From positions 1-64,000 of the forward strand of contig JBDRNT010000089.1 of assembly GCA_043810925.1 (NCBI GenBank): a stretch of 64,000 nucleotides of DNA, in the 5' to 3' direction. Below, in pieces: positions 45,973 to 51,907 of this stretch. Position 1 is the stretch's first letter. Every line of letters starts with the position of its first letter. Below the pieces are notes generated by a model that was given only the letters and a program-made list of their open reading frames with translations, was not told the origin of the DNA and made no database searches. The stretch is from Candidatus Eiseniibacteriota bacterium. GTDB taxonomy: Bacteria; Arandabacterota; Arandabacteria; Arandabacterales; Arandabacteraceae. The position numbers and the translations under genes were made by a program.

Positions 45973-48717
45973 TTGCGTCGTATAGCCATCTTCGTTGTCC
46001 TCATCTTAGCCACCGCGGCTATGCTTGCACTTTTTTCCCTCAGAGTTGTAGGTGACAATGAGGTCGTGCTTGTGGGAGAGGGCGGCGATACGAGGGAACT
46101 CAAGTCGGGCATAAACTTCCTGAAACCCCTTGCCAAGGTCAGACGGTATAACCTGACCGACACATACGAGCTCCGGGGTGACAACGCTCTTTCAGTCAGG
46201 TTGGACCGGAAGACGAGCGCCGTCTTTGACTGTGCGGTGGATGTGAGCCTGGCGAGAGACCGTATCCGGGACCTCGATCGCGACTATGGTGACAGGGTCT
46301 TTGAGAAGTTACTGAGACCGTTGCTCGAAAGAGAGATCACCGGTCATCTTGAGGAAGCGTTCGACTCGAGCCGGCAGTTCCTCGATGCGCTGGGGGGTGA
46401 GCTCTCCGCGAGTATCAACGAGACGACGGTAGGGCTCGGTGTGACCATCTCGTCCATCCGCCTGGACAAAGTCACAGAGCGTCTGAACCAGGTCCACGAT
46501 CTCAAGCGCGGCGACGGGGTCAAGGTATTCGTCCTCGGGCTGGACGGCTATGATTGGATGATCATGGACAAGGTCTCCGAGACCCACGGTCTGGCCAATA
46601 TCCGAAGCATTCAGCGTGAGGGCGCGTGGGGTAACCTGCGATCGATGGAGCCCCTGATATCCCCGTTGATCTGGACTACCATGGTGACCGGGGTTACACC
46701 CGATGTGCACGGTATAACGGACTTTCTTACCAAGGACGAGAGCACGGGTGAGGACATCCCCGTCACGAGCAGCATGCGCAGGGTCCCGGCCCTATGGAAC
46801 ATAACCTCGTTGTTCGATCTCACCTCGGGATTCGTCGGGTGGTTTGCATCTTTTCCGGCCGAGGAAATCGAGGGCTTCATTGTCAGTGATAGATTCGCCT
46901 ACCATATGTTCGATCCACAGGGGCGCCAGGCGGGCAGGCACGCGGAGGGGGAGGGTTTGACGTACCCGCCGGGGCTCTATGACGAAGTCGGGTACCTCAG
47001 GGTCTCACCCGATGAGGCTACGGGTGATCTTAGCCTCTACACAAAGGGCCCCATAGGCACGCTCAGGGATGAATACAGCCCGGATGATACGGACAGCAAT
47101 CTGCGGCTGATCATCTCTGCCTACCGGACATATGAGAATGTGATGGCGGCTCTCTATAAGACTCATGCGCCCGATCTCTTCGGTATCTACTTCGAGTTCA
47201 CCGACAGCATCGGTCACCTGCTCATGAAGTACATGAAGCCACCGATGGCGGGGGTGAGTCAGGAAGAGCATAGGAGATACGGGGGCGGCATCATGGCAAC
47301 CTATGCCGAGGCCGACCGGATCATAGGCAACGTCCTGGATCTGGTGGATGAATCAACGGTCGTCATGATCGTGTCGGATCACGGTTTCAAGTCGGGTGAC
47401 ATGAGGCCGCTGACCGATTCGCGAATGGGGTTCGGCCAGGCAGTGGAATGGCACAGGATCGACGGCTCGATTGCGCTCTATGGCGGCATAGTCAAGCAGG
47501 GCTACCGGATAACCGACGCGAGCGTTCTGGATGTGGCTCCCACCATACTCCATCTACTTGGGCTGCCCGTCGACAGGAAGATGACCGGCAAGGTGCTCCT
47601 GGATGCGTTTGATGATTCCTGGGTTGAGAGTCACCCGGTGACCTACACGACCAAGTATGATTCACTGATTTCCGGAGAAGAATACACCCCGGCCGCCTCC
47701 GGTGGGGACAAGACACTCAGGGACAAACTGGTCTCACTCGGTTACGTGGCCGGCGGTAACAAGTCGCTTGTCAACCTTGCCAACTACTATCACAGAAACG
47801 GCAAGTTTGCCGAGGCCCTCGACGTGTGGAAAGAGATTGTCAGAGAGGATCCCCGCGATCTTGGTGCTAGGATTGGAATGAGCAACGCTCATTTCGAGTT
47901 GGGCCGGGACGACCTTGCGATTCGGGGACTGCTTGAGGTGATCGAAGACGATCCGGGTAATCTCCAGGCCTTCCAGAGTATCTCCACCATCCATATCAAG
48001 CGTGGAAGGGCGGGAGAGGCCCTTGAGTTCGCCGAGAGGGGACTTGAGGTCGATGGCAACGATGGTATGTCCTATCTCAACAGGGGCAGCGCGCTTCAGC
48101 TCATGGGAAGGGTGGATGAGGCCGCTCAGTCTTTTCGCCGGGCGATCGAGCTCGCTCCCGATCTTCCTGAGGCATACGCGAATCTGTCCCAGATATACGT
48201 GTCAAGCGGGCGCGAGCATGAAGGCCTTGAAATGGCGCAGCGAGCGGTTGCGCTTGCCTCGGGGAAATCCGAGATGCACTACGTTCTTGGAATGGCACTC
48301 AACGCAAATGGCAGGACACAGGAGGCTCTGGACGAGTACCTGACAACGATAAGGATCAACGACAGGTTCGTCCCGGGTTACATAGGTGCATGCGGGATCC
48401 TGTTTGCTGAAGGCAAGACCGACAGTGTCCTCATTCTGTGTGAGCACGCGCTTGAGTTTCCATCACCGTACGCGGCGCATGTTCACGGCCTGATAGGAAG
48501 CGCACACATGGGCCGTGGGAACCTGCGGGACGCTGCAAAGGAGTTTCAAACGGCGATTGAGGCCGATCGCTCTTATGTAGCGGCCCACGTGAATCTTGCC
48601 AGGATATACGGCCGGGAAGGCAAGAAGCGGGAGGCGATCGCAGAGCTTGAAACGGCGCTTTCGATCGACCCCGACGATCCCGAGGCGCGACGCCTGCTTG
48701 AAAGTCTCCGGCGCTAG
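45973..48717 (+). CDS. Membrane-anchored SPFH-like / alkaline phosphatase superfamily / TPR protein
   Basis: LGLDG, SPLIWTTMVTG, SDHGF, LVSLGY, then TPRs. Confidence 0.85.
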   Translation: MRRIAIFVVLILATAAMLALFSLRVVGDNEVVLVGEGGDTRELKSGINFLKPLAKVRRYNLTDTYELRGDNALSVRLDRKTSAVFDCAVDVSLARDRIRDLDRDYGDRVFEKLLRPLLEREITGHLEEAFDSSRQFLDALGGELSASINETTVGLGVTISSIRLDKVTERLNQVHDLKRGDGVKVFVLGLDGYDWMIMDKVSETHGLANIRSIQREGAWGNLRSMEPLISPLIWTTMVTGVTPDVHGITDFLTKDESTGEDIPVTSSMRRVPALWNITSLFDLTSGFVGWFASFPAEEIEGFIVSDRFAYHMFDPQGRQAGRHAEGEGLTYPPGLYDEVGYLRVSPDEATGDLSLYTKGPIGTLRDEYSPDDTDSNLRLIISAYRTYENVMAALYKTHAPDLFGIYFEFTDSIGHLLMKYMKPPMAGVSQEEHRRYGGGIMATYAEADRIIGNVLDLVDESTVVMIVSDHGFKSGDMRPLTDSRMGFGQAVEWHRIDGSIALYGGIVKQGYRITDASVLDVAPTILHLLGLPVDRKMTGKVLLDAFDDSWVESHPVTYTTKYDSLISGEEYTPAASGGDKTLRDKLVSLGYVAGGNKSLVNLANYYHRNGKFAEALDVWKEIVREDPRDLGARIGMSNAHFELGRDDLAIRGLLEVIEDDPGNLQAFQSISTIHIKRGRAGEALEFAERGLEVDGNDGMSYLNRGSALQLMGRVDEAAQSFRRAIELAPDLPEAYANLSQIYVSSGREHEGLEMAQRAVALASGKSEMHYVLGMALNANGRTQEALDEYLTTIRINDRFVPGYIGACGILFAEGKTDSVLILCEHALEFPSPYAAHVHGLIGSAHMGRGNLRDAAKEFQTAIEADRSYVAAHVNLARIYGREGKKREAIAELETALSIDPDDPEARRLLESLRR

Positions 48718-48739
48718 CCTCGAACACCTCTGAAAGAGC

Positions 48740-48767
48740 TAATGCCCCCGCCTCAGCCAGCCGAACT
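48740..48767 (+). promoter_or_regulatory. Sigma-28-like promoter
   Basis: TAATG-N15-GCCGAACT. Confidence 0.4.
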
Positions 48768-48803
48768 ATACCTCCGGGCGCGGCTCATAATGGAGGTGCA
48801 GAT

Positions 48804-49049
48804 ATGGCCACGAAACGTCAGACCAAGAAGCACTTAAGCCCTAAGGACTACACGCGGCCCCTGTTCAAGGGAACGTGGGAAGGAATGTACACATTCTGGA
48901 AGAATCCGGCAATGTGGTCCGACCAGGTTGTTTACAAGACTCTCAAGGAAATGGGAGGCAAGCCCTACACGGCACGTGACGTTCGTTCCATGATCAAGAC
49001 CTATTGCACGATCATGAGAGAGTACGTCGAGAAGACCAAGAACTGGTAA
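48804..49049 (+). CDS. Small basic hypothetical protein (81 aa)
   Basis: RBS GGAGGTG; GC3-rich codons. Confidence 0.8.
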   Translation: MATKRQTKKHLSPKDYTRPLFKGTWEGMYTFWKNPAMWSDQVVYKTLKEMGGKPYTARDVRSMIKTYCTIMREYVEKTKNW

Positions 49050-49095
49050 GTAGCCTGTAGGTTTGTAAGTTGATCCGAGCCGCGGTTGCAATTAC

Positions 49096-49128
49096 GGGGA
49101 GCCGGCCTGATGGGCGGCTCCCCTTCTC
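49096..49128 (+). terminator. GC-rich hairpin, possible terminator or mRNA-stabilising stem
   Basis: ggggagccg...cggctcccc followed by ttctc. Confidence 0.4.
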
Positions 49129-49148
49129 ATTGACAAGCACGGGATGAC

Positions 49149-49610
49149 ATGGCAAGCATGAAAGGCATACGGATTGTAAGTTCGGGAATTTCGGTCTACG
49201 AGGTCGAAGTCGATCTTGGCGGATACAGTTCGCTGAGGACCGACAGACTGGACGGATTCATCCCCAAGCTGCTTCGGATGTTCCCGGCCATGCGCAAGCA
49301 TGAATGCTACGCAGGCGAGGCGGGTGGGTTCATACGTGAGCTCAATCTGGGTACGGACCTTGCTCACGTCATGGAACATCTGACACTCGAGATGCTTAAG
49401 GTGGCTTCGAAGCAGCAAAAGAGATTCAGCGGATGGACCCGGAAGAAGGGCAAGAACTATGTGATTCACTTTCAAGCGCCGGACGGAGCCACGGGACGAT
49501 GTGCAGCCCGGAGCGCCATAGAGGTGATAGAGGGTATCCTTGAAGGGCGGAATCTGAGCAAGCGGGCCTTGATAAGGGACATCAGAGCATGTATGGAGGG
49601 CGAACAATGA
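49149..49610 (+). CDS. Stand-alone cyanophycin synthetase N-domain-like Zn metalloprotein
   Basis: HEC-x19-HVMEH; GGF..L..GT.LAH..EH..LE pattern; no ATP-grasp or Mur domain follows. Confidence 0.8.
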   Translation: MASMKGIRIVSSGISVYEVEVDLGGYSSLRTDRLDGFIPKLLRMFPAMRKHECYAGEAGGFIRELNLGTDLAHVMEHLTLEMLKVASKQQKRFSGWTRKKGKNYVIHFQAPDGATGRCAARSAIEVIEGILEGRNLSKRALIRDIRACMEGEQ

Positions 49611-50056
49611 GACTGAAGACTCTCTTTGTGGGTTTGCCCCGGGCGAGGGTGCAGAAGGTGGTCTCGTCGGTTGAGGCGGCCTCATCGCTCAGGCTGGGTG
49701 TGACGGTGTGCAGCGATCCCGGTGATAGACTGGGTGAACTTGTCTCGAGGTGTGACGCCGTCTTCATGAACAGACATATCGATGATGCTCGCCTGGACCT
49801 CTCATTGAGTGCGATTCGCGAGCATCGCGACGACGTACCGGTGACGCTCGTGTACGAGTCCGAACCCGACGGAAAGGCTTTCGTCTTCGCGAGAAAATAC
49901 GATTGCTGGCTCTTCAGCGAGAACGACCGGCGGAACAGAACGCTCACACCTGCCGAGGTCGGCGAAGGGTTGCTCAGGGAGTCGGCAAGGGACGAAACCA
50001 AGAAGCGGCTCATGGAGATATCGTTCTCGACCGGACCCTGTTCCACCGGGGAATAG
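49607..50056 (+). CDS. Pseudo-receiver (atypical REC-like) protein
   Basis: ATGA overlap with the previous gene; CDAVFMN and VPVTLVY align with REC beta3/beta4 but phospho-Asp, Thr and Lys are missing. Confidence 0.6.
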   Translation: MRLKTLFVGLPRARVQKVVSSVEAASSLRLGVTVCSDPGDRLGELVSRCDAVFMNRHIDDARLDLSLSAIREHRDDVPVTLVYESEPDGKAFVFARKYDCWLFSENDRRNRTLTPAEVGEGLLRESARDETKKRLMEISFSTGPCSTGE

Positions 50057-50062
50057 CCCGGG

Positions 50063-51907
50063 CTAAGGCATTCTGCGTTTCACAAACCCGATCAGCCGGT
50101 TCTTGGCGTCGCTGCAGTCTCCTCCCTCGATTACGCTCGCGACATAGGCATCAAGGTAGGACAAGCTTATCCGTGACTTTTCCAACATCCTGCCGGCTGC
50201 GGTGTAAGATGCGAAGAAGAATGGATCCCGCTCCAGCGAATCCAGATAGTAAATCAATGCTGCTTGGGTGTCGCCCTCAGCCTCTGCCACCGCCCCAAGC
50301 TGGTGGAAAGCGGCTGCGTTCTTAGACTCAATCTCAAGGGCAGCAAGCGCGAGCCGGCGGGCTTCATCCATATTGCCGTCGAGTCTCTGGACATAGGCCT
50401 TGTTCACCGTTATGGACGGGAACTCCGTGTGCGAGACGTCAAGGAAGTCGATATTTGAGGCAAGGCCGGCCACAAGAAGAACAGTGACCGGAACCACCAC
50501 GTCGCGTGCCTTCCTCAGCCTTATGTCGCCAAGCAGACCCGCGGCCCCCGAAGCGGCGAGTGGAATGAGGAATGCTATTGCGGGAAGCCTGAAGCGCTCG
50601 CAGGCAAAAAAGATTATGCTGACGAGAAGCATGCTCGCATAACCGAGCGTAAGCACCCACAGGTCCCTGTTACCTCTGGCGGCGTAGATCACCCCGACCA
50701 TGGCGAGGGGAAAGATGATTCCGAAATGTATCACAGGCAGGAACAGGTGATGCCATGCCGATCGACGTCCGGAGATGTCCGCGTTGTTGTCGACCTCGTA
50801 TCTGCCTATAGAAATCAAGAGCTTCCTGCCGGCAAGTTTGAGCCACCTGTCCGGACTTTCACTGATGAATCTGAGTGCGCGGTCCCGGAAGAAGGCAGAT
50901 CTCGCAGCCCCGCCGAGTGCGAGTCTGTCGGCCTCGATTCTCACGTGGTCGCCTTCGCCGAAGCGAAACGGATCCATGCCGTCGGTCGCTGCATTGTTAC
51001 CGATGAAGAGGTTGACTCCGAAACTCGAGGTGACCGGGATGATCTCACCCGATACGAGGTAGTTGTGTGAAAGACTCGCGGCTATCGGTATCAGGGCACC
51101 CAGAATGAAGACCGCCGCCTTCGCGTATGCGCGGGACCTGTCAAGGAGCAGTCTCAGTGTCATGAGACCGATCATCAGGATCGTTCCGCCCCAGATGAGT
51201 GTGCTCACGCCGAGAACGGCGCCTGAGGCGATCAGGTTGCCCCGTCTTCTGGCGACTGCGACGCCGATCACGAAGACGAGAAAGGCGACTATTGTCGCGT
51301 AGTACGCACCGGCCGGAGCGGGCAGCTCCCGGCCCCTAAGCACGCTCACCGCATTCATGGTGAACGGCACCGCATGAACATAGAAAAGCCCCATCGCACC
51401 GAGTAAGAACGCCTTACCTATGACGGCCATACGGGTTTCGTCACGCCGTATGAAGAGCAATGTACCGGCCAGCAGGAAAGACATGCACAGTGTCGTCGGA
51501 AGAATCTCGCCCGCGAAGTGATAGAAGCTCCAGTAAAAGGTCATTAGCAGCGACGCAACCAGCGCCACGGACCGGGAGAAGAGTTTCCCGGCAATCATCC
51601 CCATGAGCAGGACGTTGATTGCCAGCAGCATGCTCTGGCAGATCATGACGGCGAATCTGCTGGCTCCCGACAAGTAGTAAATGGCCGCAAGAAAAGCCGG
51701 GTAAAGGGGGCTCAGGAAGAAGGGTTGAGCAGGTGGCGTACCGGCCAGGATTTGCTTGGCCTGGCTGTCATAGACAAGCGGGTTGGCGACAAGATACCTG
51801 ACAAACGCCTGATCCCGGATCTGTAACATGTAGATAACAGACAGTGCAAAGGCGAGGATGGGCGGTACGTATAAGAGCCACTTCGGCAGCCTGTGTTCTT
51901 CCGGCAC
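50063..51907 (-). CDS. GT-C (ArnT/PMT-like, GT39) glycosyltransferase with TPRs
   Basis: PLYPAFLA, NLFIGNN, ERFRLP, multi-pass membrane, C-terminal TPR. Confidence 0.85.
   Translation of the reverse strand: MPEEHRLPKWLLYVPPILAFALSVIYMLQIRDQAFVRYLVANPLVYDSQAKQILAGTPPAQPFFLSPLYPAFLAAIYYLSGASRFAVMICQSMLLAINVLLMGMIAGKLFSRSVALVASLLMTFYWSFYHFAGEILPTTLCMSFLLAGTLLFIRRDETRMAVIGKAFLLGAMGLFYVHAVPFTMNAVSVLRGRELPAPAGAYYATIVAFLVFVIGVAVARRRGNLIASGAVLGVSTLIWGGTILMIGLMTLRLLLDRSRAYAKAAVFILGALIPIAASLSHNYLVSGEIIPVTSSFGVNLFIGNNAATDGMDPFRFGEGDHVRIEADRLALGGAARSAFFRDRALRFISESPDRWLKLAGRKLLISIGRYEVDNNADISGRRSAWHHLFLPVIHFGIIFPLAMVGVIYAARGNRDLWVLTLGYASMLLVSIIFFACERFRLPAIAFLIPLAASGAAGLLGDIRLRKARDVVVPVTVLLVAGLASNIDFLDVSHTEFPSITVNKAYVQRLDGNMDEARRLALAALEIESKNAAAFHQLGAVAEAEGDTQAALIYYLDSLERDPFFFASYTAAGRMLEKSRISLSYLDAYVASVIEGGDCSDAKNRLIGFVKRRMP

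Follow-up and report, generated by a model that had tools for sequence, protein, structure and literature searches.

The closest described system to the one analysed here is the N domain of cyanophycin synthetase CphA1 (Pfam family PF18921; structures 7lg5, 7txu, 7txv and 7wac), a peptidase discovered in 2022 by Sharon et al. (PMC9262961). In that report, C59, H79 and H83 hold a metal, tentatively zinc, and E82 acts as the general base; H83 is oriented by H57 and E87, and F67 stacks on it. The same report describes cyanophycin as contacted by the side chains of R70, E90, S60 and Y110 in structure 7txv, places the product carboxylate at the metal, and gives Cx19HxxEH as the motif of primer-independent CphA1 (PMC9262961). 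Here we describe a free-standing relative of this domain, a 153-aa metallopeptidase-like protein encoded at 49149-49610 of the forward (+) strand of a 64,000-nucleotide stretch of DNA from a Candidatus Eiseniibacteriota bacterium (assembly GCA_043810925.1, contig JBDRNT010000089.1, positions 1 to 64,000; hereafter the window). The open reading frame (ORF) list and PF18921 homology define this gene, which lies between two others on the same strand, orf81 (48804-49049, 81 aa, from the ORF list) and orf149 (ATG at 49607, to 50056, 149 aa). The original prediction, made from the letters of the window alone, had drawn these three ORFs as a cassette, and we found each of them in its place. On the evidence set out below, the locus is best read as a dedicated, signal-linked module of a metallopeptidase and a small protein that would be unrelated to cyanophycin.

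The 153-aa protein matched PF18921 with 78.8 bits (cut-off 27, E 4.1e-22) over profile positions 2-114 of 115. The cyanophycin synthetase equivalog TIGR02068 was matched with 87.4 bits against a cut-off of 850 and at model positions 18-154 only; the protein thus fails the full-length test, which takes in the G (ATP-grasp) and M (Mur-ligase-like) domains. When the Protein Data Bank (PDB) was searched by phmmer, only CphA1 chains were returned, with 7lg5 at E 1.9e-9 and 7txv and 7wac at up to E 1.4e-8, and the expected match to CphA1 structures was in this way obtained. These matches show that the ORF is genuinely homologous to the N domain of CphA1 and that its motif is not there by chance. Alignment to 7lg5 places the metal ligands C59, H79 and H83 on C53, H73 and H77, the general base E82 on E76, and the second shell H57, E87 and F67 on H51, E81 and F61. 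The residues that the original prediction had singled out (H51, E52, C53, H73, E76 and H77) are correct, and the motif is indeed Cx19HxxEH. A word-index search gave 95 homologue clusters of 120-207 aa and 50-100% identity, in all of which (95/95) the seven catalytic and second-shell residues are invariant. Among the same 95, the invariant columns comprise H51, E52, C53, G59, G60, F61, E64, G68, T69, A72, H73, V74, E76, H77 and E81, and W96, T97, R98 and H107 are nearly invariant. With this machinery in place, the protein would be expected to bind a metal and to act as a hydrolase.

Results were different for the residues that touch the substrate. Three of the four side chains that contact cyanophycin are replaced in the 153-aa protein, two of them with inverted charge (R70 to E64, E90 to K84, and S60 to Y54), and the fourth is kept (Y110 to Y104). 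Among the homologues, E64 occurs in 95/95, K or R at position 84 in 95/95, and W96, which aligns with R100 of CphA1, in 94/95. The substrate is most likely not cyanophycin, because the groove has been rebuilt with two charge inversions while the catalytic machinery has been kept. The original prediction had suggested that two substrate-binding arginines of CphA1 were replaced. The alignment to 7lg5 bears out both replacements, R70 by E64 and R100 by W96, but the GGFLAR that it gave for Synechocystis reads GGFLER in the solved CphA1, which also has FGRTR. The tryptophan at the R100 position is real, but the role assigned to that position does not stand, since R100A is the sole mutant reported to have had no effect (PMC9262961). 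The 153-aa protein and the CphA1 N domain are thus alike in their size of about 150 residues, in the Cx19HxxEH motif with its general base, and in the second shell H57/E87/F67. Unlike CphA1, it stands alone without a G or M domain, has E, K, Y and W in place of R70, E90, S60 and R100, carries the extra invariant residues E18 and H107, and comes with an obligate small partner gene in genomes without cphA or cphB.

To place the protein among other peptidases, it was compared with the M16 inverzincins (pitrilysin, insulin-degrading enzyme), which likewise carry HxxEH on an active-site helix. The CphA1 N domain and M16 share this helix, the adjacent sheet and a backing helix, as the same report describes (PMC9262961), and the N-domain fold is that of a small hydrolase of 'inverted zincin-like' type, with Cys-His-His as the metal ligands. 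M16 proteins reach about 1000 aa and take their third ligand from a downstream Glu, Asp or His (PMC9262961), whereas the third ligand of the 153-aa protein is an upstream Cys. No M16 Pfam family matched the protein at E <= 1, and with its upstream Cys and its 153 aa it falls outside M16, whose domains have 200 aa or more.

In the whole assembly (185 contigs, 91.7% complete) PF18921 was matched once and cyanophycinase not at all, and neither cphA nor cphB was found there or in the window, the latter absence having been noticed in the original prediction. The remaining matches to cphA models were MurE and MurF of the cell-wall cluster and short or weak stretches of ATP-grasp. A split cphA, which had been raised as a possible source of the ORF, is rejected, as no separate G or M domain turned up among those matches. 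Most source-named homologues nevertheless bear the label 'cyanophycin synthetase' (JGI annotation); this label would be a systematic mis-annotation that wrongly implies cyanophycin metabolism in Eisenbacteria-like genomes.

We then asked how the free-standing proteins relate to full-length CphA. When 1.84 billion representatives were searched with a profile, 1075 matched at E <= 0.001; of these the best 150 were listed and 147 aligned. E64 together with W96 was present in 20 of these 147 best representatives (21 with the window protein), at lengths of 153-482 aa, and the full motif was kept in 19 of the 21. About 115 other aligned representatives carry R at position 64, the CphA forms of about 880 aa included, and ligase domains occurred in no listed member of the E64/W96 clade. 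A FastTree tree of 211 domain sequences was rooted on full-length CphA, after four of 215 had been dropped for covering fewer than 110 columns. The clade was monophyletic with support 0.999 and held 90 tips, 87 of them with both E64 and W96; its signature is E18/E64/W96/H107. The stand-alone forms make up several deep, weakly supported branches inside it, and the fusions to a receiver form one nested group (support 0.977). Eleven relatives of about 470 aa were aligned (alignment A4), and the four scanned with Pfam (4/4) all carry an N-terminal PF18921 domain and a C-terminal Response_reg domain (E 7e-19 to 1.8e-22). In all 11 fusions the peptidase motif is invariant, as are D356, D358, D402 and K452, that is, the acidic pocket, the acceptor Asp and the Lys of a canonical receiver. 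Their middle domain of about 200 residues shows weak similarity to the sensor globins 2w31 (E 0.006) and 3pmc (E 0.04), and a search of the ESM Atlas with the middle domain of one fusion protein returned no usable match. In another relative, P0143 (378 aa), the clade domain is fused to an IclR_C ligand-binding domain and has no receiver. The original prediction had linked the peptidase to signalling, and these relatives, in which the same domain is joined to a canonical receiver, back that link. The PF18921 fold would accordingly have a life outside cyanophycin metabolism, given its own groove, its own partner and the receiver fusions of its relatives.

Two further observations concern the reach of the family. 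In P0135 (314 aa) the fold is kept, and D and Y replace H51 and C53 and L replaces E81; this protein is probably an inactive variant. A second PF18921-like lineage of stand-alone proteins, less closely related and about 148-166 aa long, was met in two metagenome loci (L084 3875-4321 and L083 812-1309). It reads HAC ... DLAHVFEH, has no GGF motif, matches the clade profiles at about E 1e-10 to 1e-13 and has no orf81 homologue upstream; because of it, free-standing N-type domains appear to have arisen or persisted in more than one lineage.

The gene found next to the peptidase across the clade is orf81. It encodes a helical protein with 18 database homologues; across a 42-row alignment (A6), P35, W38, T46, D59 and Y67 are invariant. 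Among 51 metagenome loci searched with hidden Markov models (HMMs) made from our own alignments, 36 fell in the clade (L034-L069), and 31 of these had at least 300 nt upstream of the domain. An orf81 homologue lay directly upstream, on the same strand and 54-170 nt away, in 26 of these 31, including nine loci in which the peptidase domain is only 32-44% identical and is fused to further domains. In contrast, an orf81 homologue was found at none of the 10 cphA-type loci. Within the phylum, orf81 and the peptidase occur in the identical 10 of 18 genomes and neither was found in the other eight. In all related genomes with a close homologue (8/8) the cassette is enclosed by the same pair of flanking genes, which reflects shared ancestry and is not independent evidence; the genome-contig scan gave these same eight relatives, and the breadth outside the phylum rests on metagenome contigs. 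In a relative that belongs to the same class but to another family (L019), orf81 and the peptidase stand in other surroundings, and orf149 is absent. The neighbours of the peptidase therefore do co-occur in other genomes, but the conserved core of the predicted three-gene cassette is narrower: the conserved unit is two genes, orf81 and the peptidase, and it reaches far beyond this lineage.

What kind of protein orf81 encodes was pursued by family and structure searches. No Pfam, NCBIfam or PADLOC match was obtained for the family, and across the A6 members Pfam gave scattered matches below the cut-offs. Its AlphaFold2 model, of three to four helices, is poor (pLDDT 67.7, pTM 0.43); Foldseek of this model against the PDB returned nothing at E <= 0.001, and the only look-alikes in the ESM Atlas were small helical proteins of low confidence. 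Comparison of the orf81 profile with that of the fusion family gave no significant match (E 0.06). Complex prediction from the peptidase (A7) and orf81 (A6) alignments scored 0.00 in two runs, with the fold of orf81 itself uncertain, and bears on binding in neither direction. As had been predicted, the protein is basic (pI 9.9, 17 K+R against 7 D+E) and its ATG follows a strong ribosome binding site, GGAGG, at a distance of 7 nt. The pI is 9.9-10.9 in the 29 Eisenbacteria-type rows and 4.5-6.9 in 13/13 distant homologues. A role as a DNA-binding repressor is not favoured, because the basic charge is limited to the Eisenbacteria-type group. The word-index search missed the orf81 of the window, although both neighbours were returned at 100% identity and the exact orf81 sequence is in the ESM Atlas. 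Since it is absent from those results, the gene may be uncalled in the source annotation.

The third gene, orf149, is translationally coupled to the peptidase gene. The peptidase stop TGA (49608-49610) overlaps the orf149 ATG as ATGA, just as had been predicted, and a Shine-Dalgarno GGAGG (49595-49599, + strand) lies inside the 3' end of the peptidase gene, 7 nt 5' of this ATG, with which the first residue of eight full-length close database homologues aligns (alignment A3). AlphaFold2, run on an 18-row alignment, produced a model (pLDDT 87.3, pTM 0.81) in which a five-stranded alpha/beta CheY-like (beta/alpha)5 domain leads into a long helix, and the tail is disordered. Foldseek matched 34 PDB entries at E <= 0.001, mostly receivers, among them the CpaE/TadZ atypical receivers, WspR, PorX and DctD (E 2.8e-5 to 1e-3, TM 0.54-0.62). 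Response_reg (PF00072) matched none of the 18 members at E <= 1, no Pfam family scored above its cut-off, and PADLOC gave no match for orf149, orf81 or the peptidase. In beta1 and beta3 as modelled there is no invariant acidic residue, G9 and F53 being the only invariant positions there (A3). Judging from the model, orf149 is a pseudo-receiver without a conserved phospho-acceptor Asp. It has the same CheY-like fold and long helix as CpaE/TadZ (4dn6, 4dad, 4lda), WspR (3bre), PorX (7pvk) and DctD (1qkk), and differs from them in its lack of a Response_reg match and in a tail of its own, G143-P144-C145-S-T-G148, in which G143, P144, C145 and G148 are invariant in 18/18 rows. The REC-like character that had been predicted for this ORF holds for the fold, but not for the phospho-acceptor, and the gene accompanies the pair only in the close Eisenbacteria-type group (at least 55% identical). 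The families of orf81 and orf149 are thus two protein families without any Pfam model, defined by the present alignments.

Taken together, these data suggest the following mechanism. The 153-aa enzyme would hydrolyse a peptide bond in something other than cyanophycin, and orf81 would be its dedicated partner, either as a substrate undergoing processing or turnover or as a regulator that binds it tightly. That the small protein is the target of the enzyme is the version we tentatively favour, with somewhat less than an even chance of being right. The enzyme would be under receiver-type control, exerted here through the translationally coupled pseudo-receiver orf149 and, in distant relatives, through two domains to which the peptidase domain is fused, one globin-sensor-like and the other a canonical receiver; we infer this control by a receiver-like partner from the arrangement of the genes and the fusions. 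An analogy for such a pair is the ImmA/IrrE metalloprotease, whose gene is fixed beside that of its small helical repressor substrate (ImmR/DdrO) and which works as a signal-triggered switch. ImmA/IrrE enzymes carry HExxH and have a different fold, and their partners are Xre-type helix-turn-helix (HTH) repressors. For orf81, unlike ImmR and DdrO, a search of HTH families found no match, and conservation does not extend to its basic charge. Carried to its full extent, the proposal would be of a new signalling switch in which a miniature Cys-His-His metallopeptidase, restrained by a receiver or pseudo-receiver and in relatives fused to a sensor-globin-like domain and a phosphorylatable receiver, cuts or releases on a signal one dedicated and highly conserved small protein as the real effector, the clade being the free-living source of the third active site of CphA; in that form we regard it as unlikely. 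The free-standing sister clade is a testable candidate for the ancestor of this third active site, and the module would point to an unstudied proteolytic output for two-component-type signalling. Full-text literature searches returned no paper describing free-standing PF18921 proteins or the partner.

Several results weigh against this proposal. The orf81 protein is conserved over its full length without an obvious conserved cleavage site, and its basic N-terminal tail is missing from the distant homologues. Five of the 31 clade loci with room upstream had no orf81 match, namely four receiver fusions and one locus cut at a contig end. Among the linked loci, moreover, some are duplicates or kin (identical rows in L038/L016, L047/L018, L062/L019 and L064/L065, with L049 and L061 alike), and the linkage counts overstate independence because many loci come from related organisms or duplicated assemblies. 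Neither a histidine kinase nor another recurrent third gene was seen beside eight fusion genes in their ORF lists, to which no family search was applied. Comparison of the orf149 profile with the fused receivers by hhalign was not significant (E 0.11); in this non-significant but in-register alignment the acceptor D402 meets the variable N55 of orf149 and K452 meets its invariant R111. Finally, orf149 may be a mere neighbour, because an orf149-like gene persists alone in two relatives.

Among other explanations, the most serious, although still unlikely, is that the protein is an active hydrolase acting on another cellular peptide, polymer or small amide, and that orf81 is an uncleaved subunit of it, such as a specificity factor, inhibitor, chaperone or anchor. 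The invariance of the catalytic residues suits this explanation, and the conservation of orf81 over its full length fits a folded partner rather than a cleavable precursor. In addition, the last residue of orf81 is aromatic or hydrophobic in the A6 rows shown, and a terminus docking in the active site is thinkable by extension from the product carboxylate seen at the metal of CphA1 (PMC9262961). It is countered by the surroundings of the pair, beside which no alternative substrate or biosynthetic gene recurs, and, as a weak point, by the intergenic hairpin described below, since making orf81 in excess suits a consumable better than a stoichiometric subunit. The proposal of orf81 as the target remains the one we prefer.

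An improbable explanation is that the domain is not catalytic, and that its Cys-His-His site is there to bind a metal or to sense the redox state, so that the protein serves as a sensor or scaffold signalling to orf81 and the receiver-like partner. Fusion of the domain to a globin-like domain, IclR_C and a receiver in relatives is in keeping with such a role; Cys is a typical ligand of zinc sites with a structural or sensory role, and the site of CphA1 itself belongs to a slow enzyme (PMC9262961). However, neither E76, the base, nor H51 and E81, which orient H77, vary in 95/95 homologues, and the same holds in the fusions; a mere metal site would need none of these. Within the fusions, the N domain is also the only plausible output domain.

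Little credence, again, is given to an obligatory three-part machine of this lineage only, in which the GPCSTG tail of orf149 docks in the metal site as a cysteine-switch-like latch or as the cleavage site. The ATGA overlap and the GGAGG ribosome site favour it, as does the invariance of the tail residues in a segment modelled as disordered, and the receiver fusions of relatives point the same way. Furthermore, orf149 was found downstream of the peptidase in 13/13 close loci with at least 170 nt downstream; two further close loci hold, respectively, one weak partial orf149 match and a contig edge. In contrast, orf149 was found in none of the 21 distant clade loci, nor in the class-level relative L019. 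Two relatives without the pair are also informative. G005 has a divergent orf149-like gene with a different C-terminus, alone between the same flanks, and G010 has a 169-aa ORF of like sequence at the same site, for which tblastn gave no match; one relative has neither gene at the site, which in G007 holds only about 50 bp. The orf149 family would thus be older than the peptidase pair at this locus, or independent of it, because its gene stands alone in G005 and G010. The orf149-like genes of these two relatives, of 155-169 aa (L030 1031-1498; L029 3324-3833, minus strand), end in a WGGxxC-type sequence and not in GPCSTG.

That the protein still belongs to cyanophycin metabolism, whether as a split cphA fragment, as a source of primers in trans or as an enzyme that breaks down imported cyanophycin, is scarcely credible: the JGI label and the Cx19HxxEH motif shared with primer-independent CphA1 (PMC9262961) speak for it, but a 91.7% complete genome in which no G or M domain and no cphB turned up and whose best other matches are MurE and MurF, a downstream ORF with a receiver fold and not an ATP-grasp, a Lys at the E90 position, the absence of any protein longer than 482 aa among the 20 listed E64 and W96 representatives (21 with the window protein), and the lack of a signal peptide on reading the 153-aa sequence all speak against it.

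Conserved RNA features surround orf81. The Shine-Dalgarno GGAGG of orf81 (48792-48796, + strand) is invariant in a 17-locus alignment (A10). Five nt ahead of it lies CGCGGCTC (48779-48786, + strand), which is perfectly complementary to GAGCCGCG (49077-49084, + strand), 27 nt 3' of the orf81 stop. Both halves of this long-range helix are present in 17/17 aligned Eisenbacteria-type loci; 90% of the alignment cells are paired, compared with 41-51% when the partner is slid, and one pair goes from G-C to A-U in three loci. Across the structure six of 10 pairs never vary, and the pairing controls flatter it because it was derived from the same sequences. At the 3' half, GCCGC is identical in 19/19 intergenic regions, and the flanking letters are conserved at 90% or more. 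Between orf81 and the peptidase gene, a terminator-like hairpin formed by GGGGAGCCG and CGGCTCCCC and followed by TTCTCATT occupies 49096-49123 (+ strand). It is present in the minimum-energy fold of 49047-49151 (-42.3 kcal/mol, z -2.8). Its consensus over 19 loci has eight pairs, three of them with compensatory changes, and on A10 it has nine pairs that are 97.4% paired, three changing on both sides. A scan for consensus promoters and terminators over 48600-50300 returned no site of either kind, the hairpin having been missed because its T run is short, and Rfam gave no match at E <= 1 on 48650-49250. An anti-terminator in which GAGCCGCG would pair instead with the hairpin's 3' arm was rejected by eye, as the arms vary between loci and the 8-mer does not. 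The helix and the hairpin bracket the orf81 message. In the proposed mechanism this message would be stable and separately terminated, which could allow more of the small protein than of the enzyme to be made.

Another conserved sequence, GCCGAAC with T or A as the next letter, was noticed at 48759-48768 and at the same place in L011-L018 and L034-L048, about 12-20 nt 5' of the 5' half of the helix; its GAAC is visible at the start of A10. It may act as a promoter element, or the orf81 message may be processed there. With regard to expression, contigs of one RNA library (X1) are identical to 48938-49097 and 49635-49771, and contigs of a second (X2) are about 92% alike over 48784-49059. These contigs cover small shares of the stretch and DNA may be present in such libraries, so that they hint no more than weakly at transcription of orf81 and orf149 in nature.

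The cassette is flanked on its 3' side by a gene for a 614-aa glycosyltransferase-like/tetratricopeptide repeat (TPR) protein on the minus strand (50063-51907). On its 5' side lies a gene for a 914-aa membrane-anchored phosphodiesterase/TPR protein on the plus strand (45973-48717). The latter protein has its membrane anchor at the N-terminus, matches PF01663 (type I phosphodiesterase/nucleotide pyrophosphatase) at E 7.9e-23 and contains a long array of TPRs, and its gene is syntenic with the cassette in every relative inspected.

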